Shown one piece after another: positions 1,014 to 21,675 of a stretch of 46,060 nucleotides of DNA (the first letter of the stretch is position 1; each line of letters starts with the position of its first letter). Under the pieces are notes generated by a model. That model saw only the letters and a list, made by a program, of their open reading frames with translations. It did no database searches and had not been told where the DNA came from. The DNA lies in sequence record ON185589.1; one strand, given 5' to 3'. The position numbers and the translations under genes were made by a program. The DNA comes from Escherichia phage EC147.

Positions 1014-2547
1014 AAGAGCAATCAAGGAAATGAGTGAGCATTCATTCGAAAAGATGATCAGAATATGGTTTTCTCTTTTGCAAGGTCAGAAATTCTTAGG
1101 AAACTGGCATTTCAGCTACCTATGTAGCGAAGTTGAAAAAATCATCAAAGGCGAGTCACAGAACGTAATTTTCAACATAACGCCAGGCAGCGGTAAAACA
1201 GAGATATTCTCGATCCATATGTCACCTTATGCGTCATTGAAAAGTAAGAAGGTGCGAAATCTTAATCTTTCGTTTAGTGATGGCCTTGTCCAGCAGAATA
1301 GCAACCGCATCAAAGAGATTATTGGTTCTCCAGAATGGCAGGAGCTATGGCCTGGAAAGCTGGCAAAGGCGAGCGCAAAGGATTTGATTGTAACCGATGG
1401 CGGCAAGGTTAAATTGCAAGTTAACTCGCGTTCTATCGGTGGTCAGGTTACTGGTCTGCGTGGCGGCTACATGGATGATGGATTTACTGGTATGCTGGTT
1501 CTTGACGATCCAGACAAGCCGGATGATATGCTTTCTAAGGTGAAGCGCGAAGCCGGACACATGCGCCTAAAGAACACGGTGCGATCACGTCGAATGAAGG
1601 ACACCACGCCAATCGTAATGGTCCAGCAACGGCTACACGTCAATGATTCAACATGGTTCATGACAAACGGCGGCATGGGCGGCATCCAGTTTAAGGTGGT
1701 CAGTATTCCGGCGCTCGTTACTAAGGAATATCGCGAAACGCTTCCTGATTGGTTAAAGCCTGAGTTTGATCGCGATGTTTTGTCCAGTAAGCCAGTAATG
1801 ATTGATGGTGTTGCTCATTATTCATTCTGGCCTGCTAAGGAAAGCGCGGAGGAATTACTTGCACTTCGAAATGCTGATCCGTACACGTTTGCTAGTCAGT
1901 ATCAGCAACAGCCTGTTGCGCTTGGCGGCAACGTGTTTAAAACAGAGTGGTTTCAGTATTACGGAAGCAGCGAGAAATGCACGCTACCAAAACCGGATCG
2001 CTTTGAATATACATTTATCACGGTTGATACCGCGCAGAAAACAGGGGAGCTTAACGACTACTCCGTGATCTGTTATTGGGGGATGTATAAAGATCGCGTT
2101 TACTTCATTGATGGTGTTCGCGGAAAATGGGAAGCGCCAGACCTTGAGACTAATTTTGTTGCGTTCGTTAATCAGTGCTGGAAGCGCAATAAAGAATGCG
2201 GAACGTTGAGAAGGATTCATGTTGAAGATAAATCGTCTGGCACTGGCTTGATTCAGAGCGCAGCGAAAAAAATCATGATCAAGATCAATCCCGTTCAGCG
2301 CGATAAAGACAAGGTTACTCGTGCAATGGACGCAGCGCCAGTAATGCGCGCCGGACGCGTAGCACTTCCAGAATCGCATCCTATGCTGGCTGAGATACTA
2401 GCTGAAGTTGCGGCGTTCACATTCGATGATTCGCATCCTCATGATGATATTGTTGATAACATCATTGATGCGGTTAACATTGAAATGAACATGGCAGATG
2501 ATCCGGTTGGAAGAATGAAAAAATTGGCAGGTTTGCGGAACAAATAG
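979..2547 (+). CDS. terminase large subunit
   Basis: ORF track frame 901..2547; first ATG with RBS GGAGAGG is at 979 (MLIWEDL..); P-loop-like ITPGSGKTE and acidic VLDDPDKPDD; 522 aa; overlaps HNH 3' end by 35 nt. Confidence 0.85.
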   Translation: MLIWEDLTPAHKRAIKEMSEHSFEKMIRIWFSLLQGQKFLGNWHFSYLCSEVEKIIKGESQNVIFNITPGSGKTEIFSIHMSPYASLKSKKVRNLNLSFSDGLVQQNSNRIKEIIGSPEWQELWPGKLAKASAKDLIVTDGGKVKLQVNSRSIGGQVTGLRGGYMDDGFTGMLVLDDPDKPDDMLSKVKREAGHMRLKNTVRSRRMKDTTPIVMVQQRLHVNDSTWFMTNGGMGGIQFKVVSIPALVTKEYRETLPDWLKPEFDRDVLSSKPVMIDGVAHYSFWPAKESAEELLALRNADPYTFASQYQQQPVALGGNVFKTEWFQYYGSSEKCTLPKPDRFEYTFITVDTAQKTGELNDYSVICYWGMYKDRVYFIDGVRGKWEAPDLETNFVAFVNQCWKRNKECGTLRRIHVEDKSSGTGLIQSAAKKIMIKINPVQRDKDKVTRAMDAAPVMRAGRVALPESHPMLAEILAEVAAFTFDDSHPHDDIVDNIIDAVNIEMNMADDPVGRMKKLAGLRNK

Positions 2548-2576
2548 CACGAATCGACAAACCAATATATAATCAA

Positions 2577-2602
2577 AGGCTGGTTAATCCAGCCTTTTTT
2601 AT
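2577..2602 (+). terminator. rho-independent terminator-like hairpin after TerL
   Basis: AGGCTGG-TTAAT-CCAGCCT stem-loop followed by TTTTTT. Confidence 0.5.
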
Positions 2603-2615
2603 TGGAGGAAAGATA

Positions 2616-3896
2616 ATGAGTAAATCACGAATCGTTAAGGCCGATGGCTATAACGAGATCTTTAAAGGCGAGAATTGCAAATCTCGAGTAGAGCAACCAT
2701 TCTACATGCAATCAATGCCATACAAGACGCTTGCTGACTTTTACGAAAAAGATGGCCTGGCAAAAAGGGTTATTGACGTAGTACCAGAGGAAATGGTTTC
2801 CCCTGGCTTTACTGTTGACGGCGTGGCAGACGAGGCAGCATTCCGTTCTTTGTGGGATGAGAAGCGATTGAATGCAAAAATTATTGATGCGCTTTGCTGG
2901 TCGCGTTTGTTTGGCGGATCTGCAATCATTGCTCTTGTTCAGGATGGGCGGGCGCTCAAATCACCTGTAAAGCCTGGTGCCATGCTGGAAGATGTGCGCG
3001 TTTATGATCGTTATCAGATTCGCGTTGAAGCGCGAGAAACTAATCCCCGCAAGGTTCGCTATGGTGAGCCAGTGCTTTACACTGTAACGCCAGGTGGAGA
3101 CTTGCCAGAATACCAGGTACACTACACGCGCGTTTGCATTATCGACGGTGAGCGGATACCTAACGCAAAGCGACGCAGCAATGATGGCTGGGGTGAGTCA
3201 GTTCTTAACAAGCGACTTGTCGAGGCTATTGTTGATTATAACTATTGTGAAACATTAGCGACGCAATTATTGCGAAGAAAACAACAGGCAGTATGGAAAG
3301 CTAAAGGTCTTGCGGACTTGTGTGATGATGAGGAAGGTGTTAGCGCGGCACGCCTGAGACTTGCGCAGGTTGACGACGAGGGCGGCGTAGGCAAGGCCAT
3401 TGGTATTGATGCTGAGGATGAGGAATATGATGTTCTTAACTCTGACATTAGCGGCGTTGATTCTTTTCTGGAAAAGAAAATGGATCGCATCGTTTCCCTT
3501 TCAGGTATTCATGAAATCATCCTGAAAAATAAAAACGTTGGCGGCGTTAGCGCAAGCCAAAACACGGCGCTTGAAACATTCTATAAGCTGATTGAACGAA
3601 AACGCGTTGAGGATTACAAGCCTATCCTTGAATTTCTATTACCGTTCATTATTAGTGAGCAGGAGTGGAGCATTGAGTTTTCACCTTTGAGCGTGCCTAG
3701 CGATAAAGATCAGGCTGAAATTCTGAATAAGAATATCGACTCAATCAGCAAGGCTATTGATGGTCAGTTCCTTGATGTTGAAGAAGCGCGAGACACGTTG
3801 CGAGCAATCGCCACAAGAGTTAAACTAAAGGACACTAATAAAATCAAGCTGCCGGAGCCAACTGAGCAGGAGCCAGGCACACAGGGGAATGAGTAA
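2616..3896 (+). CDS. portal protein
   Basis: 426-aa ORF immediately after TerL, RBS GGAGG; size and position typical of siphovirus portal. Confidence 0.7.
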   Translation: MSKSRIVKADGYNEIFKGENCKSRVEQPFYMQSMPYKTLADFYEKDGLAKRVIDVVPEEMVSPGFTVDGVADEAAFRSLWDEKRLNAKIIDALCWSRLFGGSAIIALVQDGRALKSPVKPGAMLEDVRVYDRYQIRVEARETNPRKVRYGEPVLYTVTPGGDLPEYQVHYTRVCIIDGERIPNAKRRSNDGWGESVLNKRLVEAIVDYNYCETLATQLLRRKQQAVWKAKGLADLCDDEEGVSAARLRLAQVDDEGGVGKAIGIDAEDEEYDVLNSDISGVDSFLEKKMDRIVSLSGIHEIILKNKNVGGVSASQNTALETFYKLIERKRVEDYKPILEFLLPFIISEQEWSIEFSPLSVPSDKDQAEILNKNIDSISKAIDGQFLDVEEARDTLRAIATRVKLKDTNKIKLPEPTEQEPGTQGNE

Positions 3897-4660
3897 TGAA
3901 AGTGAAGGGCGTCGTTAAACAATGGCGCTTTCCTGAAGCAAGCGAGCGGCAATTTAGCCGCTCAATTCAGGAGGCAATTAGAGATCTTGTAGTTCTCATG
4001 CGCAAGCGAACAAAAGCGATGAAGTTTGACGCAACAGATAATGAGATCAACAGCGCAGAAGATGAAATTAACAGCCTGGCAACTGACCTTATAGCTGGCA
4101 TTGTTTCCACTCTTCCTGCAATCGCGTTGACCATTTATAAATTCAATGCGAAGCAGTTTATCAATGTTGCCAAGTCAACTGGCGGAAAGGATAACACGGC
4201 GGTAATTGTTTTGATCGCGGTTGGAGCTAACGCTAACGAGGAATGGTATCAGACGCTTTACGGGCAATGGCACGGACTCACAGAATCATCGCTAAGAAAA
4301 TTGTTCACAAATATTGTGTCTGACTGGTCAACAAACATTCGCAATGCAAACTTTCGCGGAAGCGATGATAAACAGGTTAATGATCTTGCAGAAAAGAGAT
4401 TTGCTGTTTATAGCTCTTGGGGTAAGACGAGATCAGAAAACATTATCGGAGCGTGGAATAGTCGCCTGATGCGCCAGCGTCTTTATGATGCTAAGGTAAC
4501 TCATTATTTCTGGCATGGAATGTTAGATGACAGAGAGCGTTTGCAACATGTGTTATGGGAAGGTAAAAGAATAGCGCTTGATGCAATTCATGATTTCCCT
4601 GGTGAGCCGTGGGGTTGCCGTTGCTGGGCGATTCCAGATTGGAATAGTAAAGGAGAGTAA
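3896..4660 (+). CDS. putative head morphogenesis (minor head) protein
   Basis: 254-aa ORF translationally coupled to portal (TAATG); position typical of SPP1 gp7 / Mu F-like head morphogenesis protein. Confidence 0.5.
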   Translation: MKVKGVVKQWRFPEASERQFSRSIQEAIRDLVVLMRKRTKAMKFDATDNEINSAEDEINSLATDLIAGIVSTLPAIALTIYKFNAKQFINVAKSTGGKDNTAVIVLIAVGANANEEWYQTLYGQWHGLTESSLRKLFTNIVSDWSTNIRNANFRGSDDKQVNDLAEKRFAVYSSWGKTRSENIIGAWNSRLMRQRLYDAKVTHYFWHGMLDDRERLQHVLWEGKRIALDAIHDFPGEPWGCRCWAIPDWNSKGE

Positions 4661-4663
4661 TTA

Positions 4664-5776
4664 ATGAAGGCAAAACAAAGATTTGATAGCGTCCAGGTTA
4701 AGGCGCATTTTGATGATAATGGCTTTTTAGTTGATCGCCCAATTGTGGCGCGAATTGGCTTGCAGGAGTATCACACGCCGTATGGAATCAGACGAGAGTT
4801 CAGACCAGCGTCCGAGGTGTTCAAGGCTGATTCCCTTGCTACTTTCGCAGGTAAGCCGATCACTATCGGTCACGTCACGGTAACACCGGACAATGCGGAT
4901 CAGGTTGTTGTTGGTTCATGCGCTGGTGCTGGTGTTCCAAATGGTGTTGGCGTTGAAGTTCCGTTAAGCATTTACTCAAAGCGAGCAATTGAGAGCGCAA
5001 AAAAGAAAGACACGGCTGAAATTTCAGTTGGTTACACATCGGTTGATATTGATAAGCCAGGCTGGGGTAATAATAAAACTGGTGACTACTTGTTTGAGGA
5101 AGACATTAAGGAAGACTGGAGGCCTGATTCTCCTGATTGGGTTAAATTTGACGTCATTCAGACGAATATTCGCGTTAATCACATTGCGCTTGTCTTTCGT
5201 GGTCGTGCTGGCATTGCCAAATTAAATCTTGATAGTGAACAAGAATTTCCGTATAGTGACGAGATTCTAAATGACAAAGGAGATGAGGAAATGACAGTAA
5301 AAATTAAACTTGATGGCGCGGTAGAATTTGATGTTCCAAAGGCCGTTGCTGATCATATTGAGGCGTTAAAGGCAGATGCAAAAGCTGCAACCGAAAAAGC
5401 TGATGGCCTTGAGGCCGAGCGCGACGCCCTGAAAACTAAAGTCGATGGCATTCCGGCGCAGATTGCAGAAGCTGTTAAGAAGGCAAAGACTGACGCAGAA
5501 GAACACGCCAAGCTGGTTGCAGATGCAACTGAAATTGGCATCAAGTGTGACGGCTTGGACGCTAAAGCGATCAAGGTTGCTTACGTCAAAGAAGTCACTG
5601 GCGCTGATATTTCAGAAAAAGCCGATGCATATATTGAAACAGCTTTTGACCTTGCGAAGCAGTCTGATAAAATGGCGGCGCAGCGTAAATCTGTTAAGGG
5701 CGATTCTTTCGGGTCTGGCAAGAGTGAAAAAACCGACTCCCTTGATCCGACTGCGCGTTTGAAAAAACTTAAATAA
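4664..5776 (+). CDS. putative scaffolding / prohead-associated protein
   Basis: 370 aa; C-terminal half is Ala/Lys/Glu-rich and predicted coiled-coil (KADAKAATEKADGLEAERDALKTKVDG..); lies between head morphogenesis and capsid genes. Confidence 0.5.
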   Translation: MKAKQRFDSVQVKAHFDDNGFLVDRPIVARIGLQEYHTPYGIRREFRPASEVFKADSLATFAGKPITIGHVTVTPDNADQVVVGSCAGAGVPNGVGVEVPLSIYSKRAIESAKKKDTAEISVGYTSVDIDKPGWGNNKTGDYLFEEDIKEDWRPDSPDWVKFDVIQTNIRVNHIALVFRGRAGIAKLNLDSEQEFPYSDEILNDKGDEEMTVKIKLDGAVEFDVPKAVADHIEALKADAKAATEKADGLEAERDALKTKVDGIPAQIAEAVKKAKTDAEEHAKLVADATEIGIKCDGLDAKAIKVAYVKEVTGADISEKADAYIETAFDLAKQSDKMAAQRKSVKGDSFGSGKSEKTDSLDPTARLKKLK

Positions 5777-5788
5777 GGAGAAATAAAC

Positions 5789-6301
5789 ATGGCTACAATT
5801 GGAGAAAGTTATTTTGATGTAATGTCTCGTGCGTTACCTGGTCAGGTTTCTGACACTTCAGCTTATAATATTGATGGCGCTTGTGTTCTTGAGAATGCAG
5901 AAGGCAATCAGAATAAGTCTGTTTTTGTTGGTGTGGCGGTACAGCATGGCGGCGTTGATGCTATGGGTAATAAGCTAATTAAGCCGATGGCGGCAAGCGG
6001 CAAGGCTTACGGCGTTGCAATTCGATCTCACTTTCAGACAACTTCGTCTGACGGTCGAATGATTTATGAATCTGGCAGCGTAATCAACGTAATGACTGAG
6101 GGGCGTGTTTGGATGTTGGCTAAAGACGCCTCCGCGCCAGCTTTCGGCACTGCAATCAAACTGTCTGATGATGGTCAGGTCGATACCACGTCTGGCACTA
6201 TCGAAACAAACTGGATCGCGACTGGTGATTTCACCAAGTTTCAAGACTTGAAGCTGGTAGAGGTTCAGGTGCAAAAAATTCCGGCAGTTTCAGCAGGTTA
6301 A
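5789..6301 (+). CDS. capsid-associated structural protein, paralog A
   Basis: 170 aa, RBS AAGGAG; shares motif EGRVWMLAKDASAPAFG with the next ORF (RGNVWCLTSESEAPEYG). Confidence 0.5.
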   Translation: MATIGESYFDVMSRALPGQVSDTSAYNIDGACVLENAEGNQNKSVFVGVAVQHGGVDAMGNKLIKPMAASGKAYGVAIRSHFQTTSSDGRMIYESGSVINVMTEGRVWMLAKDASAPAFGTAIKLSDDGQVDTTSGTIETNWIATGDFTKFQDLKLVEVQVQKIPAVSAG

Positions 6302-6308
6302 TAAATAT

Positions 6309-6333
6309 GGCGCTCAGTGAGCGCCTTTTTTAT
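6309..6333 (+). terminator. terminator-like hairpin
   Basis: GGCGC-TCAGTGA-GCGCC followed by TTTTTT. Confidence 0.5.
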
Positions 6334-6346
6334 ATTTGGAGTTCTC

Positions 6347-6781
6347 ATGAGTGATTATTCAGTCATTGTTGGCGCTGAGTCGCCAGGGTGCATGGTCGAT
6401 TCTTCAATAATGGTGATTAACGGATCTTTCGTGTGCGGAGATGAATTTATTGCGCCAGGTAAGATTGTGCGACTATCACATATAACAAATGGATACAAAA
6501 TAGCAAGTGTTAATGGGGATCTCGTTATTGGCGTGGCAGTAAGGCCGCCGGACTCGTGCATATATGAAGAGGGCGATCCAGTTAATGTGGTTAGTCGAGG
6601 TAATGTTTGGTGCTTAACTTCTGAGAGCGAAGCGCCAGAATATGGAGATAAAGTATTTGTAACGCAAGATGGAGATGTGGCATACAGTGAAGGCGACTTG
6701 CTGATTGGTTGGATCTTTACTGGCGAACATGTAAAGGTTGATAATGATTCATATATTGTCGGGGTAAGCATTGACCCATAA
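6347..6781 (+). CDS. capsid-associated structural protein, paralog B
   Basis: ORF track start 6317 is a GTG inside the terminator stem; ATG at 6347 has RBS GGAG; 144 aa; paralogous to 5789..6301. Confidence 0.5.
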   Translation: MSDYSVIVGAESPGCMVDSSIMVINGSFVCGDEFIAPGKIVRLSHITNGYKIASVNGDLVIGVAVRPPDSCIYEEGDPVNVVSRGNVWCLTSESEAPEYGDKVFVTQDGDVAYSEGDLLIGWIFTGEHVKVDNDSYIVGVSIDP

Positions 6782-6799
6782 CACAAAATTATGTTGCAC

Positions 6800-6820
6800 G
6801 TTTAACAAAAAATGCTATCA
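6800..6820 (-). promoter_or_regulatory. copy of conserved 21-bp element, reverse orientation, without a good -10
   Basis: GTTTAACAAAAAATGCTATCA on plus strand (revcomp TGATAGCATTTTTTGTTAAAC); on minus strand followed by CATAAT after only 6 nt instead of 18. Confidence 0.35.
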
Positions 6821-6864
6821 TTGGTCAGTTACATACTAACGACCTTTATATATGGAGGAAGAAA

Positions 6865-7839
6865 ATGGAAAAAGAAAAATTTGATCAGCTAGATGCGGAC
6901 ATTGTTTCTAGCTATCTGGCTACTCGCGGCGTTAAAGGTGATGCGTCCGATATGGGTATTTGGGCCGCTCAAGAACTGCATAAGATTCGCTCTAATGCTT
7001 ACGAGAAAGAATATCCGGCAGGTTCGGCGCTTCGCGTATTCCCTGTAACTAATGAGCTTTCTGATACTGATAAGACTTTTGAATATCAGGTGTTTGACAA
7101 AGTTGGTTACGCAAAAATTATCGCTGAGTACACCGACGACCTGCCGACCGTTGACGCGCTGATGTCTAGCGAATTCGGTAAAGTATTCCGCCTGGGTAAC
7201 GCGTTCTTGATCTCCATTGACGAAATCAAGGCTGGTCAGCGCACTGGTAAGAGCCTTTCCGCTCGCAAGGCAAACGCAGCGCAAAACGCTCATGATCAGG
7301 AAGTTAACCGCCTGGTGTTTAAGGGTTCAAAGCCGCATAAGATTCTTTCGGTGTTCGAACATCCTAACCTGCCAAAGATCGCGTCTTCTGGCTGGTTAAG
7401 TAAAGATGAAAACACTAAGTTCCCACAGGCGGCATCTGATGAACTGGAAAAGGCTATTGAAATCATTCATACCATCACCAATGGTCAGCACCGAGCAACC
7501 AACATCCTGATTCCGCCGTCTATGCGCAAGGTTCTTTCCGTTCGAATGGAAAACACCACTGAAAGTTATCTGGAATACTTCCAGAAACAAAACAGCGGAA
7601 TCACCATCGACTCAATCGCAGAGCTTGAGGATATTAATGGCACTGGAACGAAAGGTTGCCTGGTATATGAGAAAGACCCGATGAACATGTCGATCGAAAT
7701 TCCAGAAGCATTTAACATGCTTCCGGCGCAACCAAAAGATCTGCATTTCAAAGTTCCGTGCACTTCAAAATGTACTGGCCTGACGATTTACCGTCCGTTT
7801 ACGCTAGTGCTTATTACTGGCTTGAAAAAATCAGGTTAA
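6865..7839 (+). CDS. major capsid protein
   Basis: 324 aa, strong RBS GGAGGAAG, flanked by terminators on both sides (monocistronic high-expression unit); position after scaffold. Confidence 0.65.
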   Translation: MEKEKFDQLDADIVSSYLATRGVKGDASDMGIWAAQELHKIRSNAYEKEYPAGSALRVFPVTNELSDTDKTFEYQVFDKVGYAKIIAEYTDDLPTVDALMSSEFGKVFRLGNAFLISIDEIKAGQRTGKSLSARKANAAQNAHDQEVNRLVFKGSKPHKILSVFEHPNLPKIASSGWLSKDENTKFPQAASDELEKAIEIIHTITNGQHRATNILIPPSMRKVLSVRMENTTESYLEYFQKQNSGITIDSIAELEDINGTGTKGCLVYEKDPMNMSIEIPEAFNMLPAQPKDLHFKVPCTSKCTGLTIYRPFTLVLITGLKKSG

Positions 7840-7851
7840 TCGTATAACATT

Positions 7852-7882
7852 GGGGAATCCTTAACTGGATTCCCTTTTTTAT
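7852..7882 (+). terminator. rho-independent terminator
   Basis: GGGGAATCC-TTAACT-GGATTCCC stem followed by TTTTTT. Confidence 0.65.
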
Positions 7883-7895
7883 TGGAGGTTATGAA

Positions 7896-8168
7896 ATGGC
7901 TAAAGAAAAAACTGTAACGCTAAAGGTTTCCGGCGTGTGCCTTATCATTGTTGATGGTGAGCATTATCATCCAGGCAAAGAGTTTGACGTAGAAGAATCA
8001 AAATTGAAAACAAGCGCGTTTGAATATCTAATTGCAAAAGGCGATCTGGAGGTTAAAGACAACTCCGCATTGAACGAAGAAATCAAACAGAGCGCAGCAA
8101 GCAAACGTAAAAAAGACCCACGAGAGGGCAAGAGCAAAGCCGAACTTGAAGACGGCGGCATCTATTAA
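7896..8168 (+). CDS. hypothetical head-associated protein
   Basis: 90 aa, RBS GGAGG; Lys/Glu-rich C-terminus. Confidence 0.45.
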   Translation: MAKEKTVTLKVSGVCLIIVDGEHYHPGKEFDVEESKLKTSAFEYLIAKGDLEVKDNSALNEEIKQSAASKRKKDPREGKSKAELEDGGIY

Positions 8169-8174
8169 TAAAGA

Positions 8175-8196
8175 GGGCGCTATAAGCGCCCTTTGT
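8175..8196 (+). terminator. weak terminator-like hairpin
   Basis: GGGCGC-TATAA-GCGCCC followed by TTTGT. Confidence 0.35.
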
Positions 8197-8215
8197 CATA
8201 TCTGGAGGAAACACA

Positions 8216-8632
8216 ATGGTTGATGAATTTTTCACTGACGCAGAAATCACGCAGCAAATCGTGAAATTAGCGCCACCGATGAAGCAGATTGATCCAGATT
8301 TAATGGTGGCATGGATTGAGCTTGCAAAGGAATTTGTTTGCAAGAAGCGGTTTAAAGAATCATATCCTAAAGCGGTTGCCCTTTATACTTTGCACCTTAT
8401 GACGCTTGATGGAGCCATGAAGCAAGAAGGGGAAAGCGTAGAGAGTTACTCACGGCGCGTGGCGTCATTTTCCCTGACTGGTGAATTTAGCCAGACATTT
8501 GATCGCGTGTCCGGCGATTCAAGCGGAAAAGAGATTAGACAAACTCCGTGGGGTAAAATGTATGAGACGTTAAATAGAAAAAAAGGCGGTGGATTTGGCC
8601 TTGTGACTGGATTTCGGAGGCGCTGCAAATGA
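8216..8632 (+). CDS. hypothetical head-tail joining region protein
   Basis: 138 aa, RBS GGAGG; position between capsid and tail genes. Confidence 0.45.
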
Positions 8633-9000
8633 ACTATAACGAGATCGCAAGAATGGCAACCGAAGGAATTAACTTCTTTAGTGATAGCAACGGTGAGTTT
8701 AAGTGCATAACGCAGCGTGGAAGCGTTGAAATCATCGGAGGCGAAGAAGTAGAAAAGCCAGAGATTAGTGTAATGATTAAGGGTTTAATTAGATCACCCA
8801 AAGTCCGAGAGGTTGACGGCGAGACAATACGAGTAACCGACAAGTTGGGAGTTTTTAACAATAAAGTTGAAATTAAGAACGGGTATCATATTGATGTTGA
8901 TGGTGAGTTATATGTTGTAGTTGAAGCAAGACCAATCAGGCAAACCAATGTCACTGTTGCTTATCGGCCTATTTTGAGAAGGATTTCTGTACATGGCTAA
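8629..9000 (+). CDS. hypothetical head-tail joining region protein
   Basis: 123 aa; ATGA start/stop overlap with upstream ORF. Confidence 0.45.
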
Positions 9001-9436
9001 AAACTACACGATAAGGGAATTTCACGGCAACATTGATGCGTGGATAAACGCCGTTGATAGTGGATTAAAAGATTGCGTGGAGTTGTTCGCCGAAAAAGTA
9101 CACACAGATTTGGTTAAGCGTTCTCCGGTAGATACTGGTCGTTACCGTGGAAACTGGCAGGTAACAGCAAATAAGCCGCCATTGTATGCGCTTAATCAGT
9201 ACGATAAGCACGGAGACAAAACGATCGCGGAAGGAAAACGTGCCATATACGCAATATTACGAGGTGGCGGCGCAGTAAGAGCTATTTATTTTTCTAACAT
9301 GCTTATTTATGCTAACGCGCTTGAGTACGGTCATTCAAAACAAGCGCCAGCGGGTGTGCTTGGTATTGTTGCCGTGAAATTGCGTTCATATATGGCTGAG
9401 GCAATAAAAGAGTCGAGGGCAAAAAATGCACTATGA
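8993..9436 (+). CDS. putative neck / tail completion protein (HK97 gp10-like)
   Basis: 147 aa; motif PVDTGRYRGNW resembles HK97 gp10-family tail-completion proteins; overlaps upstream ORF. Confidence 0.6.
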   Translation: MAKNYTIREFHGNIDAWINAVDSGLKDCVELFAEKVHTDLVKRSPVDTGRYRGNWQVTANKPPLYALNQYDKHGDKTIAEGKRAIYAILRGGGAVRAIYFSNMLIYANALEYGHSKQAPAGVLGIVAVKLRSYMAEAIKESRAKNAL

Positions 9437-9824
9437 ATTAATGCTATCGGCGCGTAAGGCGCTGGCGACTGAATACGAAAGCAGATTCAAGATCGCTTAT
9501 GAAAACGTAGAGTTTACGCCACCTGGTGACGGTTCGCCGTGGTTGAAGTTTGACTATGCCGAAGTTGATACAGAATACTTGTCATTGGATCGAAAATGCG
9601 TTTCCTGTATCGGAATGATTCAGGTTGGCATTGTGTTTCCACCAGGTTACGGAACTGACAGGCCGCGCGTTCTCGCTAAAGAGATTGCGCAATTCTTTTA
9701 CGATGGTAAAATGTTGGAGCATGGTTATATATATGAGGGTGCAAGAGTTCACAAGCCGCTCAAGAGTGAAAGCGGTTGGCTTCTCCCTGTAAGATTTTAT
9801 GTTCGAATTGAAACAAAGGAGTAA
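9426..9824 (+). CDS. putative tail terminator protein
   Basis: 132 aa ORF directly upstream of major tail protein gene; call by synteny. Confidence 0.4.
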   Translation: MHYELMLSARKALATEYESRFKIAYENVEFTPPGDGSPWLKFDYAEVDTEYLSLDRKCVSCIGMIQVGIVFPPGYGTDRPRVLAKEIAQFFYDGKMLEHGYIYEGARVHKPLKSESGWLLPVRFYVRIETKE

Positions 9825-9829
9825 AAATT

Positions 9830-10492
9830 ATGCATTTACCAAATGGATCGCAAATTTTCGTTGAGAGAAATCGCGGCAGCGAAATCCAAGCAAAGGCAGT
9901 GTCAAACGATAAAGATCCTGTATTCACAGTTGCATCTGGTGGAACTGCGTACAAGAAAGGTGATTATGTGATCATCACTGCGTCTTCTTGGGGTAAGCTG
10001 ATTGATCGCGTTATGCGTGTAAAGGCTGACGGTAAAGAAACAAGCGTGACTCTTGAAGGCGTAGATACTAATGATCCGAACGTTTTCCCGACTGGAGGTA
10101 CTGCATCTTTTGCCAAAATTGATGCATGGACTGAGATCCCTTGCGTTCAAGATTTGTCGCAGGACGGCGGCGAACAGCAATACTACACTTATCAGTGTTT
10201 GGCAGACGATCAGGAGCAACAGTTGCCTACCTATAAGAGCGCCGTTTCTCTTACCTACACTTTTGCGCACGAATACGATAACGCGATCTATCCGCTATTA
10301 CGTTCAGCAGATGAATCAGGCGAAGTAACGGCGCTTCGCATGTATGTACCAAAAGCAAAAGAGATGCGTTGCTGGGCTGGTGTACTTTCGTTTAACGAGA
10401 TCCCACAAACGACCGTTAACGAAATTGAAACTGTTTCCCTTTCTGTATCCCTGAAAAGTCGATTCACCTTCCTACCTTCTCAAGTAGCATAA
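9830..10492 (+). CDS. major tail protein
   Basis: 220 aa, RBS AAGGAG, followed by strong terminator and then chaperone/tape-measure genes. Confidence 0.6.
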   Translation: MHLPNGSQIFVERNRGSEIQAKAVSNDKDPVFTVASGGTAYKKGDYVIITASSWGKLIDRVMRVKADGKETSVTLEGVDTNDPNVFPTGGTASFAKIDAWTEIPCVQDLSQDGGEQQYYTYQCLADDQEQQLPTYKSAVSLTYTFAHEYDNAIYPLLRSADESGEVTALRMYVPKAKEMRCWAGVLSFNEIPQTTVNEIETVSLSVSLKSRFTFLPSQVA

Positions 10493-10498
10493 TCACAA

Positions 10499-10522
10499 GG
10501 GGCGTTGCGCCCCTTTTTTTGT
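10499..10522 (+). terminator. rho-independent terminator
   Basis: GGGGCG-TTG-CGCCCC followed by TTTTTTT. Confidence 0.7.
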
Positions 10523-10534
10523 TACTGTACAATC

Positions 10535-10579
10535 ATGATACACGATTCATAATCAATTCTTTTAACAAAAAGTGCTGTT
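10535..10579 (-). promoter_or_regulatory. copy of conserved 21-bp element with -10-like TATCAT, antisense to tail genes
   Basis: minus-strand reading AACAGCACTTTTTGTTAAAAG + 18 nt + TATCAT; sits between terminator and tail chaperone RBS. Confidence 0.35.
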
Positions 10580-10591
10580 AAGGAGAAAGAA

Positions 10592-10909
10592 ATGTCAAAA
10601 ATGAAATTGACGCTTGGGCCGCTTCCTGACTTTAAATTACCAGTGAAATTTGCAATGCCCAACGGAGAAGATCAAACAATTGTATTTACGGTTCGTCATC
10701 GCAAAACAAGTGAGATTCACGAGCGATACACTTCGGACAATCCAATGAGCGATGTTGAAATGATCACCTTCCTTGCTTCCGGTTGGAATCTTGATGATGA
10801 ATTTAACGAAGAAAATATTAAACAGCTTCTTGATTACTACCCAGCAACAGCAATCGGATTAACTAGCGCATACATGAAAGCGCTTGCGGGGCAGCGAGTA
10901 AAAAACTAA
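10592..10909 (+). CDS. tail assembly chaperone (lambda G-like)
   Basis: 105 aa, RBS AAGGAG; ends at slippery heptamer A_AAA_AAC; directly upstream of tape measure gene. Confidence 0.75.
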   Translation: MSKMKLTLGPLPDFKLPVKFAMPNGEDQTIVFTVRHRKTSEIHERYTSDNPMSDVEMITFLASGWNLDDEFNEENIKQLLDYYPATAIGLTSAYMKALAGQRVKN

Positions 10910-11220
10910 AAAGGGCGGTTTACCTGTTTTATCAGAAACCGCCGACAGATGCAGAGCTTGAGGCCGTTGGCCTTACAAGGGCAGACTATGAAGGAGAATA
11001 TCCGCCAGAGGTTATATTTGATGAAAGCATGATGCAATCATGGGATATATTTTGCGCAATGCAAACGCAATGGAGATGTTCTGGCGGTGGCGCTTACGGA
11101 TTTGATTATAATGTCTTGCCTATGCTTTTTGAGATTTACAAGGTTGAGGATCGCGAGATGGCGCTAAACGACTTGCGAATCATGGAACAAAAAGCACTTG
11201 AAATGATGCATTCAAAATAA
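10592..11220 (+). CDS. tail assembly chaperone G-T fusion via programmed -1 frameshift
   Basis: -1 frame is open from the slippery site (10900-10906) through 11220, covering ORF 11029..11220; stem-loop 7 nt downstream; conserved G/GT arrangement before the tape measure gene. Confidence 0.65.
10900..10943 (+). promoter_or_regulatory. -1 frameshift site: slippery A_AAA_AAC plus downstream stem-loop
   Basis: heptamer 10900-10906 in X_XXY_YYZ register of the upstream ORF; 7-nt spacer; 8-bp stem GGCGGTTT / AAACCGCC (10914-10943). Confidence 0.65.
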
Positions 11221-11242
11221 GCGCCTACGGGCGCTTTTTTAT
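11221..11242 (+). terminator. terminator-like hairpin before tape measure gene
   Basis: GCGCC-TACG-GGCGC followed by TTTTTT. Confidence 0.5.
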
Positions 11243-11259
11243 TACCTGGAGGATTAATA

Positions 11260-13932
11260 ATGTCAGAACAATACGCAGGCTTGACGCTTGGGGTTGATGT
11301 ATCTCAACTCAACAATGCTGTAAAGTCTTTGCAGCAATTCAAGAAGGCAAACGACGACGCAAAGGGAAGCGTTGAGGGTTTTGTTGATTCAGAGGTTGTT
11401 GCAAGACAAAGATCCAAACAACTGGCTGAGGAATTGGCAAAGCAGAAGCAAGAATTTAAAGCAATTCAGTCGGCAATAGATCCGACAGCAAGCAAAATGG
11501 ATAAGTTGCGCCAGGCTGCGACACAGCTTGATGCGCTTTGGAAAAAAGGAATTGTGCCGGATGATACATTCTTTGAGTTAGGATCAATTCTTGAGACGCA
11601 GCAAAACAAACTGATCGCAACTAAAAAGGCTCTAACTGAAGAAGGCCGCGCGGCGCTTGAGGAAGCAAAAAACAAGGCAAGGGCAGAGGCTGAGGCAAGA
11701 AAGTTTATTGCGGCATTGCAGGCGCAAGCTGACGCAGCGGAAAAAACAAAATCAGAGCTTGTCGAAATGAGAGCCGCACAACTTGGAGTTAGTGCAGAGG
11801 CCGCGCCATTTATTGCAAAAATGAAGGAGCAGGAAAAACAAGCCTCAAAACTTGGCGTTTCTATGGGGCAGTACAAGCAAGCAATGGCGCAATTGCCAAT
11901 GCAAATCACTGACGTTGTTACTTCTCTTGCTTCAGGTATGCCAGTATGGATGATCGCAATCCAGCAGGGGGGACAAATCAAGGACTCATTCGGCGGTGTT
12001 GCTAATACGTTTAAAGCGCTAATGACATTTGTCACGCCTTTAAGTGTAGGAATGACGGCACTGACTGGTGCTCTTGGTTATGCTGCATATAATGCATACA
12101 AAGCAAATGCACAATTGAAGGAGATCACAAAAACCGTTCAGGAGGCAACTGGTCTTTCTGGTGATTTTGCGGAGAGGATTGCAACTGGAATCCAGGCGCT
12201 ATCTGACAAGACAGGTGAGAGCGCCGATAATCTGGCAAAGGCATACATAAGCACTAAGGATGGAGCAACCGAGGCCATACAAAAACTCGTCGATGTTGGA
12301 TTTACCTATGACGAAGCAAAGGCAAAAGTAAACGAATACAAAAACGCATCAAGTTTTGTAAGTCTTAACAATGAAATCGCTGATCATAAAAACAAAGTTC
12401 TTGAGCTTGGCGATTCATGGTATGCGGTCTTAAAAGCAAAGCGTGATTATGCTTCACCTTCCGGCGGGCTGTTGGGGAAAGAGCTTGGTTATGTGAATCC
12501 AATGCTGCAATTTGCAAAGAACACCTATGAGGATATAGGAAAGATCGTAAAAGATGCGAATAAGGATATGGCGGAACGAGCAGCACGCATCGACAGAGAA
12601 AACCTTTCCTTAAACAGAGTTCGAGCGGCGCAAGAGGCTTTAAACAAAGCCATAGAGGATCAGAAGAACGTAGCAAGGACAGCAGACGAAGAGTTGAAAA
12701 AACGAGCGGCTGAGAACGTTGAGTTCAGGCGAAAAGAGCTTGAAGAGGCGAAGAAGGCACAGCAGCAAAAGGAAAAAGTTGGTGGAGTTGTAAAAGCACC
12801 AACAGAGCAGCTTGATAAGGAGTTATATGTTCTCAAAGCGCAACTTGAAACACTAAAAGAGCACCGAACTGTAAATGATGTTATTTCACGCCAGAGGCAA
12901 TCTTTGTGGAGCATTGAAAAGCAGATCCAGATCCTGGAGGAAGCGCAAAGCAAACGTAAGCTGACAAAAGCGGAACAGGCGTTACTAAACGAGCAAAAAG
13001 CAGTTATTGCTATGGCAAAAGAAAAGGCCGAGATAGGCGATCAGATTGTTTTGCAACAGAGAAAGAATAAGCAATACCAGGAAGGTCTTAAATTCATTCA
13101 GCAAACATCAGATGCTATTGACGCTATGAACTTGCGACAGTCTGGAGCTACAGATCTGCAAATCCAGCGAGAGCTTGAGTTGAAGAAGTTGCGAACTGAT
13201 TATGTTGCTGGCGGAGGTAGTATCGACGATGAAATTTATCAGCAGATGGAAGCAAAGCTGAAAGAGTATTACGCCACTGAGGATCAGCTAAGAAATAACT
13301 GGATTGCAGGAGCAAAAAACGCATGGGAGGTTTACGGACAAGATGCAATGGATATGTACGGAAACGTGCAAGATATTGCAAGCCAGGCGCTCAACGGTCT
13401 AACCAACCAAATGGCTACATTCCTTGCAACAGGCAAGGCAAACTTTAAGAGCTTCGCAACGTCAATCATCCAAATGATTATCCAGATGATCACGAAGATG
13501 GTTATCTTTAATGCCATATCTGGTGCGATTGGCGGTGACACTTGGACGATTGGAAGCCTTCTTAAGAATGTTGGATTTGCAACTGGTGGATACACTGGCG
13601 ACGGCGGGAAGTATGAGCCAGCAGGTGTTGTCCATAAAGGCGAGTTTGTCATGACGAAGGAGGCCACGAAGCGGATCGGAGTTGGAAACCTTTACAAAAT
13701 GATGCGCGGTTATGCAAATGGCGGCGTTGTTGGCGGAACTTCATACACTGGCGGCGGCGTTTCATCAGGAGCAACAAACCTTAATATTGGTGGGATTAGC
13801 GTTGATATTAACAACGGAAACGATCCGAAGGGGTTAGAGACTGGCGTAAAAATGATTTTCACTGATATGATTAAGCGTTCCTGTACGCAGGGTGGGGAAG
13901 TTTACGAATTTGTTATGTCTAAGCGGGGGTGA
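11260..13932 (+). CDS. tail tape measure protein
   Basis: 890 aa; long Ala/Lys/Glu/Gln-rich coiled-coil region; Gly-rich C-terminus; RBS GGAGG; follows G/GT chaperone. Confidence 0.9.
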
Positions 13933-13988
13933 TAGTGAAACTTGAGCAATTCAAATGGTGCACGCAAACGCAAGGAGGCGGCGGCACT

Positions 13989-14285
13989 ATGACCACATCA
14001 AATAACGACAGGGAAATCTCATTTGGTAATGGTTACACGCAGGTTGCTTCAGGAGGGTTTAACACGGTACGCAGGGAGTTTTCCATTGTCTATGTTGGCA
14101 AGGATTACAGAGACGTTGTTGACTTTCTGAATGGACACAGGCTGAAGCCGTTTTTATGGTTTATGCCTGACGGTCAACCTGGTCTATTCAGGATAAAATC
14201 TGGTAGCGTTGGATTAACTCCAATATCAGCAACCGTTCAGGAAGTGAAAGCAACATTTACTGAGCAATTTACATCAATGCAATAA
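13989..14285 (+). CDS. minor tail protein (lambda M-like)
   Basis: ORF track start 13929 is GTG overlapping tape measure; ATG at 13989 preceded by AAGGAGG; 98 aa; first gene after tape measure. Confidence 0.7.
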   Translation: MTTSNNDREISFGNGYTQVASGGFNTVRREFSIVYVGKDYRDVVDFLNGHRLKPFLWFMPDGQPGLFRIKSGSVGLTPISATVQEVKATFTEQFTSMQ

Positions 14286-14290
14286 TTCAA

Positions 14291-14314
14291 GCCGCCTTTG
14301 TGCGGCTTTTTTAT
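14291..14314 (+). terminator. terminator-like hairpin
   Basis: GCCGC-CTTTGT-GCGGC followed by TTTTTT. Confidence 0.5.
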
Positions 14315-14346
14315 TGATGATACAATGCACGAAAGGAGGTGCAATT

Positions 14347-15108
14347 ATGGCTAATGAAACAACAGGTCGCGCGGATCTTGAAAATTGTCTGCAAAGCCTT
14401 TACCCTGGCGAGATTATCACGCTAATTGAAATTGACGGCACAAAGTTTGGCGCAAACATTTACCGCATACACAATGAGAACATCTCATACACTGCGGAAG
14501 AATTATTGCAGGCGCGAGAAACTGGAGTTCTTCCGCCGAAAGAGATTACATTCCGTGGTGAGGTTTACGGCGCGCGCCCGTTCGGAATATCTGGAATCAA
14601 CTTCACAAGCAACGGAAAGGCTGATAAGCCACAATTGATACTATCAAACCTTGATAGCCAGGTGAGCGCGATGATTCGCAACTTTAACGGCATGATGCAA
14701 GCTAAGGTTACAATCTGGATTACGCCAGCGGAATTAATGGGGAAAGATGGCAGCATTAAAGATGGAGCTTCAAGAAAGCTGGTTTACTACATTGAGCGCC
14801 CAAGCCACTACAATAGGATGATGGCAAAATTTGATCTGACATCGCCTTATGATATGGATGGAATAATGATTCCTCCTCGAATAACTCAAAGCGTTTGTTA
14901 TTGGGCGCAGCGTGGATGGTATCGAAGCGGAAAAGGTTGCGGATACAATGGATCGCGAATGTTTGACAAAGACAACAATCCTGTAACCGATCCATCTCAA
15001 GACTTTTGCGCCGGAACTGTAACCGCGTGTAAACTTCGGTTTGGTGCAGATCAGCAGCTTGATTTTGGCGGTGCACCAGTAGCAAGCCTGTTAAGGAGAA
15101 ATCAGTGA
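14347..15108 (+). CDS. minor tail protein (lambda L-like)
   Basis: ATG at 14347 after AGGAGG (ORF track 14314 is TTG); 253 aa; C-terminal Cys cluster (CYWAQ, GKGCG, FCAG, TAC) consistent with the gpL Fe-S site. Confidence 0.75.
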   Translation: MANETTGRADLENCLQSLYPGEIITLIEIDGTKFGANIYRIHNENISYTAEELLQARETGVLPPKEITFRGEVYGARPFGISGINFTSNGKADKPQLILSNLDSQVSAMIRNFNGMMQAKVTIWITPAELMGKDGSIKDGASRKLVYYIERPSHYNRMMAKFDLTSPYDMDGIMIPPRITQSVCYWAQRGWYRSGKGCGYNGSRMFDKDNNPVTDPSQDFCAGTVTACKLRFGADQQLDFGGAPVASLLRRNQ

Positions 15109-15839
15109 TGATTAGTGCAAAAATAAAACTTGAAATAATGCAGCACGTAAAAGATGAATACCCGCGAGAGGCGTGCGGTGTTATCACTCAAAAATCACGC
15201 GCGCAAAAATACCACCGCATAAACAACGTGCATAATGATCCTGAAAATCATTTTGAGATGGACGCAATTGAATACGTTGAGGCTTGTGAAAGTGGTGAGC
15301 TTATTGCTGTTGTGCATAGCCACACAGGAGACGGGGCAAGTACAATTCCAAGCGCCCATGATACATGCATGTGTGATGAAATGGGTGTTTCATGGGTTAT
15401 TTTGTCATGGCCAGAAGGTGACATGAGAATCATAGAGCCTGAATCTCGTCCCCTGATTGGTCGCCCGTGGTCGCTTGGTTCTTATGATTGCTGGGGTCTT
15501 ATTATGGCATGGCACAAGCAACATGGGGTTATCCTGAATGATTTCAGGAAACCATATGAATGGTGGAAGCCTGAGCACGGTGAAAATCTTTATCAAGAAA
15601 ATTATCTGAAAGAGGGTTTTGTTGAAACAGGAGAGCCGCCAAAACCTGGTGATATGGTTATCTTTCAGCTTTCCGCGCCAGTTTGGAATCATGCAGGCAT
15701 TTATCTTGGCAACAATCAGTTGCTTCATCATGCCTTTGGTAAGTTGTCGAGGGTTGATTTGTATTCTGGATGGTATCAGGAACATGTAAAAATGGTTTGT
15801 AGACATAAGGATCTGAAATATGACTTTGAAGGTGATTAA
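15105..15839 (+). CDS. tail tip assembly protein (lambda K-like; MPN/JAMM + NlpC/P60)
   Basis: JAMM motif HSHTGDGASTIPSAHD and NlpC/P60-like DCWG..H..H; start is GTG 15105 or ATG 15108. Confidence 0.85.
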   Translation: MMISAKIKLEIMQHVKDEYPREACGVITQKSRAQKYHRINNVHNDPENHFEMDAIEYVEACESGELIAVVHSHTGDGASTIPSAHDTCMCDEMGVSWVILSWPEGDMRIIEPESRPLIGRPWSLGSYDCWGLIMAWHKQHGVILNDFRKPYEWWKPEHGENLYQENYLKEGFVETGEPPKPGDMVIFQLSAPVWNHAGIYLGNNQLLHHAFGKLSRVDLYSGWYQEHVKMVCRHKDLKYDFEGD

Positions 15840-16416
15840 ATTATCTGGATCTTTAGGGCGAAGATTTGGTGTATTTCATAAGATGGCTGTTGACTCATAC
15901 CCTGAAGCAATCCGTGCGCTATCTTCGCAGGTGGAAGGATTCAAGGAATACATGCAAAGCGAAGTAGGATCGCGAATGCGTTATGCTGTATTTGTTGACG
16001 GCAATAATGTAGGACAGCACGATGAAAAAGCGTGGCAATGCGCAAAGGAAGTGAGGATTATTCCAATCCCAACAGGTTCAAAGTCTGGCGGGTTGTTTCA
16101 GGTTGTTCTTGGCGCGGTTATTATGACGACTGCATTTTTCACTGGCGGCGCTTCACTTGCGTTGATGGGTGCTTTTGCATCGTCTGCTTTTATGATGGGT
16201 GGCGCTATGGTGCTGGGTGGCGTAATGCAGATGATTTCACCACAGCAAGGAGGGTCGCGGTTATCATCCCAATCAGCAGAGAATAAGCCGTCTTACGCTT
16301 TCGGTGGCGCTGTTAACACAACGGCGGCAGGATACCCAATACCATTGCCATATGGTCAGAGGACCGTTGGCGGTGCTATCTGGTCGGCTGGAAGCTATGC
16401 AGAGGATAAGGCTTAA
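15820..16416 (+). CDS. tail assembly protein (lambda I-like)
   Basis: 198 aa; Gly/Ala-rich hydrophobic C-terminal half; overlaps K-like gene; directly precedes J-like gene. Confidence 0.75.
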   Translation: MTLKVIKLSGSLGRRFGVFHKMAVDSYPEAIRALSSQVEGFKEYMQSEVGSRMRYAVFVDGNNVGQHDEKAWQCAKEVRIIPIPTGSKSGGLFQVVLGAVIMTTAFFTGGASLALMGAFASSAFMMGGAMVLGGVMQMISPQQGGSRLSSQSAENKPSYAFGGAVNTTAAGYPIPLPYGQRTVGGAIWSAGSYAEDKA

Positions 16417-16425
16417 TATAAAAGA

Positions 16426-16452
16426 GTCGCGCGTTGCGCGGCTTTTTTTTTG
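16426..16452 (+). terminator. rho-independent terminator
   Basis: GTCGCGC-GTT-GCGCGGC followed by a 9-T run. Confidence 0.6.
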
Positions 16453-16496
16453 CCCGTATAATTCAACAAATCAAATAGCACAAAAGGTGAAAAAGT

Positions 16497-21647: not shown

Positions 21648-21675
21648 TTGACTAAACGCATCAAATAGCTACAAT
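21648..21675 (+). promoter_or_regulatory. sigma70-like promoter for the recombination operon
   Basis: TTGACT (21648-53), 16-nt spacer, TACAAT (21670-75), about 30 nt upstream of ATG 21705. Confidence 0.5.

Follow-up and report, generated by a model that had tools for sequence, protein, structure and literature searches.

What do copies of an early-promoter repeat do when they lie, out of pattern, among the late genes of a phage? The question is raised by the genome of Escherichia phage EC147 (sequence record ON185589.1), which we analysed as one stretch of 46,060 nucleotides, called the window below. By its sequence the window is a T1-like coliphage (Drexlerviridae, Tempevirinae, Hanrivervirus), about 97% identical to Escherichia phage haarsle; a 6-kb query from its structural region matched the Escherichia phages haarsle, aalborv, egaa, aaroes, and grams with 96-97% identity. 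A plus-strand run of genes extends from terS (position 1) to the gene for a J-like protein (16497-19922), and the rest of the window holds early and replication genes on both strands. T1 belongs to the seven classical T phages. To our knowledge it has neither a polymerase nor a sigma factor of its own, and we know of no published account of the timing of its early and late genes.

The repeat itself has been described before. The 2024 re-annotation of phage TLS lists a 21-nt direct repeat, aaATAGCACnnnTTGnTAAAA, at 21 places (PMC11447400, Suppl. Table S1). It has T, G, and A subtypes, was seen also in T1, Rtp, and Rogue1, and runs with transcription about 76 nt 5' of start codons; its function was left open, a stoperator, an enhancer site, and an UP element being suggested (PMC11447400). 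The literature searched contained no report of the motif beyond that paper. Judged by its sequence, the element of the window is this same repeat of TLS and T1. Its canonical sequence in the window is (A)ATAGCACTTTTTGTTAAAA(C), followed about 19 nt on by CATAAT or TATAAT, and the 15 canonical copies are intergenic, point in the same direction as the downstream gene, and lie about 76 nt before its start codon. An earlier note on this DNA drew attention to four further copies in the late region that depart from the pattern, and proposed that they may drive short antisense RNAs, be relics, or be binding sites used independently of promoter function. We give an even chance to the following answer: the four late copies would be conserved copies of a cis-regulatory element, each built into one of the sigma-70-type promoters inside the structural region, of which there are four (for the portal, major capsid, tape-measure chaperone, and J-like tip), and would tie the late genes to the early-promoter system.

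For scoring, the element was taken as a 19-mer and the matches at the 15 specified positions of ATAGCACnnnTTGnTAAAA were counted; chance expectations were obtained from first-order Markov simulations. The whole window has 19 sites with at least 12 of 15 matches (2.7 expected) and 16 with at least 13 (0.25 expected). The late region, defined for these counts as positions 1-20900, has two sites at the threshold of 13 (0.06 expected) and four at the threshold of 12 (1.26 expected). Conservation was assessed in the surroundings of capsid-protein homologues (96% to 52% identity) on 78 viral contigs, to which the loci of T1, TLS, Stevie, swan01, and tonnikala were added. Loci with a capsid identity of at least 74% are called close and those with 52-56% distant; the totals differ from site to site, the capsid site being represented by 75 loci (37 close and 38 distant). 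A position matrix of canonical copies was built from 231 distinct copies with at least 14/15 matches, taken from the window and 80 related loci.

All four late copies were found where the earlier note had placed them. The reverse copy put at 6800-6820 occupies 6800-6818 on the minus strand (ATAGCATTTTTTGTTAAAC, 13/15), with CATAAT 6 nt downstream on that strand and TTATGG, which is not a -10 box, at 18 nt. The second reverse copy, put at 10559-10579, occupies 10560-10578 (ACAGCACTTTTTGTTAAAA, 14/15) between a terminator (10497-10515) and the Shine-Dalgarno sequence of the chaperone gene (10580-10586); TATCAT at 10540-10535 lies 19 nt from the 19-mer, which equals the 18 nt counted in the note from its 21-mer. 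The degenerate copy after the TerL gene is the forward sequence ATAGCACGAATCGACAAAC (2544-2562, 12/15), and the TAG stop codon of that gene (2545-2547) lies inside it. The half-element before the J-like gene is the forward sequence ATAGCACAAAAGGTGAAAA (16475-16493, 12/15), which ends 3 nt before the ATG. All four are intergenic. The copies at 6800 and 10560 point against the plus-strand late genes, and this reversal is conserved. The canonical spacing of 18-19 nt to a -10 box is kept at 10560, where no gene follows on that strand; it fails at 6800, at 2544 (TATAAT at 5 nt), and at 16475 (ATG at 3 nt). Scores of 13/15 and 14/15 are far beyond chance, so each reverse copy is significant alone. 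Statistically the copies at 2544 and 16475 are within chance, and what validates them as probable copies is only their conserved position and strand in relatives.

The reverse copy at the capsid site, 62-105 nt before the capsid ATG, is present in 36 of the 37 close and 33 of the 38 distant loci (69/75). A forward copy precedes the J-like gene in 29/30 close and 0/32 distant loci, a forward copy follows the TerL gene in 21/35 close loci and in 1/36 distant ones, and a reverse copy lies in the gap between the major tail and chaperone genes in 18/34 close loci, with no real copy among the distant ones. Reverse matches at about +3100 to +3780 in the distant (52-56%) loci were rejected as coding-sequence coincidences at the N-terminus of a gene. 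Matches on the wrong strand at the four sites are nearly absent among relatives. T1 has copies at 15068 (minus), 18832 (minus), and 25021 (plus), and TLS at 15024 (minus) and 24908 (plus), which are the repeats DR7 and DR8 of its annotation. DR7 (15044-15024, minus strand, beside terminator T35) is the homologue of the window copy at 6800-6818, and DR8 (24906-24926) that of the copy at 16475-16493. As position and strand are kept down to 52% capsid-protein identity and in T1, the suggestion that the late copies are relics does not hold at the level of the family.

At the capsid gene, the reversed copy forms a part of a predicted plus-strand promoter. An A-tract (6785-6788) and the -35 hexamer TTGCAC (6794-6799) directly follow the stop codon of the upstream gene (6779-6781). 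The reversed element (6800-6818) comes next; its plus-strand sequence serves as the spacer of 16 nt and supplies the first half of the extended -10 box TGcTATCAT (6813-6821), with a predicted start near 6828. Among 54 distinct contexts, the A-tract (at least 4 nt), the TTG immediately 5' of the reversed element, and the TG of the extended -10 box are found in all 54, and TAnnnT in 52, being shifted by 1 nt in the other two. The -35 box takes the forms TTGCAC, TTGAAC, TTGACC, and TTGACG in relatives, and the A-tract 5' of it fits the proximal subsite of an UP element. Between clades the middle of the copy switches between T-type and G-type, and TAGCA and TAAC stay fixed. The capsid copy thus varies only as canonical copies do, which argues for the constraint that acts on canonical copies and not for a generic constraint on a spacer. 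An antisense promoter was rejected at this site: the minus-strand -10 slot reads TTATGG, GTAGGG, TTAGCA, and GGTGCA in relatives, and the TTA in it is due to the reverse complement of the upstream stop codon.

In the gap before the chaperone gene, two predicted promoters are interleaved. One, on the plus strand, is the predicted promoter of the chaperone and tape-measure genes, TTGCGC-N17-TACAAT; its -35 hexamer TTGCGC (10505-10510) lies in the terminator that follows the major tail gene, within its loop and right arm, its -10 box is at 10528-10533, and its predicted start is near 10540. The reversed element lies at about +21 to +39 of this promoter and abuts the Shine-Dalgarno sequence. On the minus strand it is followed by TATCAT (10535-10540), the -10 box of a predicted antisense promoter of the element type that would start near 10528 and read into the reverse complement of the terminator. 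Of 17 distinct contexts of this gap, every one has a minus-strand TAnnnT 18-19 nt past the element, though the spacer sequence varies widely; TTGnnn-N17-TAnnnT is present on the plus strand in 16 of them, and the two opposing -10 boxes are always offset by 7 nt, i.e., separated by a gap of 1 bp. In most relatives and in T1 the copy has 15/15 matches. Since each predicted start (10540 on the plus strand, 10528 on the minus strand) falls inside the -10 box of the other promoter, open complexes at the two should exclude each other. Folding of the RNA predicted from 10528 gives a hairpin of -15.9 kcal/mol (z -3.0), which is the terminator in reverse complement, with UUGUGAUUA after it. By its motifs the 10560 copy appears to be a complete and conserved antisense promoter. 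The proposal of antisense promoters is therefore borne out by sequence at this site only and lapses at 6800, where the slot is not conserved. T1 has both promoters of the pair; TLS keeps the plus-strand chaperone promoter (TTGCGT-N17-TAATAT) and has no element there.

The two forward copies also coincide with predicted promoters. In the gap between the TerL and portal genes, the predicted portal promoter (2545-2573, plus strand) consists of TAGCAC (2545-2550), N17, and TATAAT (2568-2573). The half-decayed element (2544-2562) would occupy about -36 to -18, and a terminator-like hairpin with a T-run (2575-2597) begins 2 nt past the -10 box. The arrangement ATAGCAC-N17-TAnAAT is found in 12 of 14 distinct contexts, with N18 in the other two. 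Relatives have a 14-15/15 copy after the TerL gene, ATAGCACGAATTGCTAAAA, then TATAAT or TACAAT 5-6 nt on and a terminator hairpin. We also note that the TerL stop codon lies within the ATAGCAC block, so that coding sequence and regulatory site overlap in this phage. The predicted promoter of the J-like gene (16434-16462, plus strand; 20/22 contexts) has TTGCGC within a terminator, N17, and TATAAT at 16457-16462. The forward copy, of the A type, would lie at about +7 to +25 and carries AAGG, the Shine-Dalgarno sequence of the J-like gene. The distance from TATAAT to the element is 11-14 nt, and some relatives have a 14/15 copy followed by GGAGG instead of the element-borne AAGG.

Among the late-region gaps of the window, a -10-like box is present in four only, the same four that hold an element; the other late terminator gaps run straight into a Shine-Dalgarno sequence. 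Five more terminator-like hairpins (6309-6325, 7852-7875, 8174-8192, 11219-11236, and 14289-14308) are likewise followed directly by the next Shine-Dalgarno sequence, with no promoter-like box. Terminator-like hairpins inside late operons imply leaky termination or read-through. The late plus-strand sigma-70-type promoters are predictions from motif matches that are conserved in relatives. Relative to them, every late copy lies within or downstream of the core promoter, and every early copy lies at -50 to -32. That each late copy is embedded in a conserved plus-strand late promoter had escaped the earlier note, as had the presence of the element in the literature (PMC11447400). Its third suggestion, binding sites used apart from promoter function, is the one favoured by the anatomy of the putative sites at 6800, 2544, and 16475.

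In the canonical matrix, with the element counted as positions 1-19, T36 G37 n T39 A40 T41 A42 n T44 forms an extended -10 box, and C50 A51 further on are also conserved. We take C50 A51 as the probable -1 and +1 of the canonical promoters, which places the element at about -50 to -32. The -35 slot of these promoters reads TAAAAC and holds no -35 box. The element contains a dyad of 5+5 bp, TAGCA-N5-TG(C/T)TA, centred at about -42, with the variable T/G/A triplet at its centre; the dyad is perfect (TAGCA-N5-TGCTA) in the variants with C at position 14, which make up 59%. The conserved flanking positions A1, C7, T11, A17-19, and C20 are asymmetric. With this presumed +1, a site centred near -42 and an absent -35 hexamer constitute a class II-type layout, and the geometry fits a promoter that would depend on, or be boosted by, a protein bound at -42.

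Several known categories of site were considered for the element and rejected. A sigma-54 promoter (TGGCACG-N4-TTGCW, with GG and GC 10 nt apart) bears a striking likeness to the element but does not agree with its TAGCACG-AA-TTGCT, which has AG in place of GG and a spacing 2 nt too short; a sigma-70 -10 box at a fixed distance after the element also speaks against it. UP elements are A/T-rich and extend from -59 to -38, and this element spans -50 to -32 with invariant G or C at five positions. Reading TTGyTA as a -35 box would require a 22-bp spacer. A comparison by eye with the remembered consensus sequences of IHF, Fis, DnaA, CRP, and FNR gave no convincing match and serves as a lead only. 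The total hits of a generic promoter scan were not above those in shuffled sequences; the scan misses -35 boxes of the TTGCAC and TTGCGC type, so it neither supports nor refutes the predicted promoters.

A candidate for the protein that reads the element is encoded in the window. The gene at 27943-28416 (minus strand) specifies a Cro-like helix-turn-helix protein of 157 aa, put forward as a possible element-binding factor from profile, sequence, and predicted structure. Its Pfam matches, to Cro/YdaS, are below threshold, and by sequence it also matches Cro proteins of solved structure; the predicted structure has a mean predicted local distance difference test score (pLDDT) of 86, and superposition of the central domain on the Cro proteins of Xfaso 1 and N15 gives target-normalised TM-scores of 0.70-0.75. 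The best-conserved part is a basic N-terminal arm (residues 9-35, STGxIDKRTINGNNGTRRGKDKKxRK), in which D14, R16, N19-G23, R26, D29, and R33 are invariant from Escherichia phages to a Vibrio phage and for which model confidence is low; C112 and C129 are conserved as well. The 116 homologues found are all on contigs of T1-like size, at most about 78 kb and mostly near 50 kb, and every named phage source is a T1-like phage. Vibrio phage Vc1 and Citrobacter phage HCF1 have both a regulator homologue and the same element, and this co-occurrence, extending to a Vibrio phage, counts in favour of a link between the two. The predicted promoter of the regulator gene (28467-28495, minus strand) consists of TTGAGT (28495-28490), N16, and TATAAT (28473-28468), and shares its -10 region, with an offset of 1 nt, with the TATTAT (28467-28472) of the element promoter of the helicase gene. 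The predicted regulator mRNA crosses the helicase copy in reverse, and this reversed element abuts the Shine-Dalgarno sequence of the regulator gene. T1 and TLS have the same layout (P57/DR11 in TLS).

From the observed sequences, conservation, geometry, and promoter motifs we infer transcription starts, protein binding, and a sign of regulation as follows. A factor bound at about -42 would drive or boost the early element promoters. The same factor would hinder the late promoters, where its site overlaps or follows the core promoter. At the portal promoter it would cover the -35 box and spacer through a forward copy, and at the capsid promoter the spacer and -10 box through a reversed one. 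At the chaperone (reversed) and J-like (forward) promoters it would sit in the first ~40 nt of the transcribed leader, beside the Shine-Dalgarno sequence, and at the chaperone site it might also steer polymerase into the non-productive antisense direction. The late promoters would thereby be negatively coupled to the early-promoter system. The most likely factor is the candidate Cro-like protein; at the interleaved promoters it could repress its own gene by negative feedback and activate the helicase gene. In its full form the proposal is that gene timing in T1-like phages is under one master factor, probably this protein, which would turn on, from about -42, some 15 early or middle promoters without a -35 box and, through the other copies, hold down every internal late promoter, with a toggle between the antisense and tape-measure promoters and an identical autoregulatory toggle at its own gene. 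This full form we put forward tentatively, thinking it somewhat more likely wrong than right.

Several observations weigh against regulation of the late promoters by such a factor. The element is invariant, yet the helix predicted to recognise DNA in the Cro-like protein differs from phage to phage. The early promoters may need no factor, since promoters of the extended -10 type are able to work in the absence of an activator. A dyad of 5+5 bp is expected by chance in, roughly, a few percent of 19-mers, and the conserved flanks around this short dyad are asymmetric. TLS-like phages have the chaperone promoter and lack the element in this gap, which implies that the antisense partner is accessory and the copy dispensable. 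After the TerL gene, the right half of the copy has decayed to CGACAAAC in this phage and its closest relatives, and TAGCAC, TATAAT, and the hairpin remain; compared with the perfect ATAGCACGAATTGCTAAAA of relatives, this copy does look like a relic within this phage, so that here a part of the relic suggestion stands. The hairpin 5' of the capsid gene is weak in the window (-6.6 kcal/mol, z about 0). For that reason we also discarded the idea that the capsid transcript starts inside a terminator arm, as the weak hairpin gives it no support; relatives have stronger hairpins. No mapping of transcription start sites in the T1 family or Drexlerviridae was found in the literature searched, which did not include the 2004 T1 genome paper. 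Finally, the proposal leaves the release of the late promoters unaccounted for.

The main rival dispenses with an extra factor. To host RNA polymerase itself, the element would be a module of strong extended -10 promoters that acts from upstream or in place of a -35 box; at 10560 it would form a constitutive antisense promoter that occludes the chaperone promoter or makes an antisense RNA of ~35-45 nt ending at the reverse complement of the terminator, and the sequences at 6800, 2544, and 16475 would be reused as a spacer, a -35-like hexamer (TAGCAC resembling TTGCAC), or a ribosome-binding region. It accounts for the canonical promoters, which have TG with TATAnT and are A/T-rich from -43 to -32. 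It is also consistent with the identity of the element in Vibrio, Citrobacter, and Escherichia phages, whose RNA polymerases are conserved, with the stable hairpin and following UUGUGAUUA of the predicted antisense RNA, and with the left half of the element filling the -35 slot of the portal promoter. However, fifteen near-invariant positions, G and C among them, exceed the information usual for contacts of the alpha subunit or sigma, and the element lies 5 bp too far upstream for a -35 box, given the 22-bp spacer. The rival gives no reason why the capsid spacer should stay a copy of the element in 69/75 loci, or why a constitutive competitor should be kept at a fixed offset of 7 nt. We regard it as unlikely, though well worth keeping in view.

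If, instead, the copies were stoperator-like roadblocks, a phage repressor made during infection would bind all of them and stop transcription, and the late copies would attenuate or insulate transcription units. The site is asymmetric, present in many copies, and oriented with transcription, several late copies lie in transcribed leaders, and the candidate protein is Cro-like, all of which would suit such a role. The strict 18-19-nt spacing to the -10 box and the conserved +1, however, identify the canonical copies as parts of promoters instead of roadblocks within operons. The capsid promoter, from which the most abundant late protein is made, would also be closed by a pure repressor, and the late copies are mixed in orientation. 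Roadblocks therefore seem to us a decidedly improbable answer.

We hold it very improbable that the transcribed copies in the chaperone, regulator, and J-like leaders act in RNA, as an A/U-rich translational enhancer or a processing site by the Shine-Dalgarno sequence. The copy does abut or contain the Shine-Dalgarno sequence in these three genes, and the leader reads UUUUAACAAAAAG. But the RNA differs from site to site, since it is not always the same strand that is transcribed, the copies at the capsid and portal genes precede the predicted start, and the minus-strand -10 box of the chaperone site is conserved. Functionless relics of promoter-cassette shuffling, or chance matches, deserve hardly any credence: the 12/15 scores of the 2544 and 16475 copies (within chance statistically), the visible decay of the 2544 and terS copies, and the absence of the chaperone copy in TLS agree with them, but position and strand conserved across subfamilies, near-perfect copies in relatives, and invariant geometry argue that this reading is largely refuted by the comparative data.

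Regulation by a factor bound to the element has parallels in known systems. Lambda cI bound at OR activates PRM from a site centred at -42 and represses PR, and among class II activator-dependent promoters are those with CRP at -41.5 and those of Mu Mor/C, which lack a -35 box. As in these systems, the putative site here is centred near -42 before a promoter without a -35 box, and the same site placed over a core promoter would repress; as at lambda OR, the regulator gene stands beside divergent promoters that share DNA. Unlike them, the phage element is strongly asymmetric outside its 5+5-bp dyad, occurs as one site per promoter and not as cooperative triplets, and belongs to a virulent phage. 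Bidirectional promoters with overlapping -10 elements have reportedly been described by Warman et al. 2021 (Nature Microbiology). Here, too, opposite-strand pairs share or abut their -10 boxes, with offsets of 1 nt for the regulator/helicase pair and 7 nt for the chaperone/antisense pair; in contrast, one partner is of the element type, the chaperone antisense partner has no gene, and the predicted starts are ~12 bp apart instead of 18. The T4-type promoter-early stem-loop (PeSL) cassette is a conserved early promoter joined to a stem-loop, which recurs among small early genes in a plastic region. The canonical copies are similarly followed by stable hairpins, but there is no sequence relation, and the late-region copies have no counterpart among PeSLs. 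The stoperators of mycobacteriophage L5 (Brown et al. 1997, cited in PMC11447400) are likewise numerous and asymmetric, lie in short gaps between genes, and have an orientation that correlates with transcription. They differ in being 13 bp long and serving a lysogenic repressor, whereas the precise spacing to a -10 box makes the copies here promoter parts; L5-type stoperators belong to a temperate phage, and TLS is described as virulent (PMC11447400). The closest system is TLS itself, whose repeats are the same sequence element as the window copies; its re-annotation, the one paper found to report the repeat, does not discuss reversed copies, the dyad core, or how copies are built into late promoters, nor does it describe promoters interleaved in pairs, such as the antisense promoter with its late partner (PMC11447400). 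The element as such was known before.

The canonical copies, identified by element score, are distributed over both strands. Eight are on the plus strand: 22767-22785 (A-type, 12/15, with TTATAAT in a hairpin loop), 28430-28448 (in the helicase promoter and, in reverse, next to the regulator Shine-Dalgarno sequence, as described above), 30954-30972, 31995-32013, 41717-41735, 42180-42198, 43177-43195 (G-type), and 44173-44191. Seven are on the minus strand: 21261-21279, 27941-27959 (primase gene), 35242-35260, 37409-37427, 38085-38103, 39484-39502 (G-type), and 40375-40393. The 40 nt after the canonical elements fold stably, with a mean z of -2.8 over the 15 copies, e.g., at 22786-22825, 27901-27940, 37369-37408, 40335-40374, 43196-43235, and 44192-44231. 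At many copies the -10 hexamer sits in the hairpin loop. The stems differ in sequence, so it is the structure and not the sequence that is kept; possible roles are protection of the 3' end of the upstream transcript or its termination, or processing. The leader after the canonical promoters is conserved too and reads C-A(+1)-TCGAAACGAA followed by GGAG, e.g., at 41761-41792, 38030-38060, and 35190-35217. The repeated unit is therefore a cassette of ~76 nt that comprises the element, hairpin, -10 box, and leader, and it recalls mobile promoter cassettes. At 27886-27940 (minus strand), the terminator hairpin of the regulator gene with its T6 carries the -10 box of the primase promoter (TATCAT) in its loop, so that terminator and promoter use the same DNA; the counterpart in TLS is terminator T57. 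A consensus-like sigma-70 promoter without an element, TTGACT-N16-TACAAT (21648-21675, plus strand), lies 5' of the gene for a RecE-like exonuclease and is the counterpart of TLS P51. It and the regulator promoter are among the very few early-region promoters without an element.

Further traces of the element were found at terS and near a tail-fibre gene. In the terS gap of the window, TATAAT (46027-46032) is followed by the decayed remnant gatgctttgttataaa (46033-46048; feature 46027-46048, plus strand). The terS gap of T1 (8362-8380) has a 13/15 copy just before the terS Shine-Dalgarno sequence, and the window remnant is ~4 nt shorter. T1 also has a reversed copy at 34902-34920 (plus strand), 5' of the minus-strand tail-fibre gene ST26, in the order TTGCAA-N17-TAAAAT, reversed element, Shine-Dalgarno sequence, which is the same design as at the chaperone and regulator genes. 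This copy is missing from the window because the fibre region there is unlike those of haarsle and T1. Between ssb and the primase gene, 24340-26954 (minus strand) differs from the corresponding region of the 97%-identical haarsle (31028-33962) in having several shorter open reading frames where haarsle has a 683-aa Stf; this difference in the side tail fibre suggests a swap of a host-range module. A search of the whole window for known RNA families and tRNAs found none.

The late copies are informative exceptions, because the same sequence lies at -42 in the early promoters and over or just after the cores of the late ones. The question of what the repeat does thus becomes one for specific and cheap experiments. 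T1-like phages are common therapy candidates and fermentation contaminants, and the element may offer a compact promoter/operator pair for engineering them.

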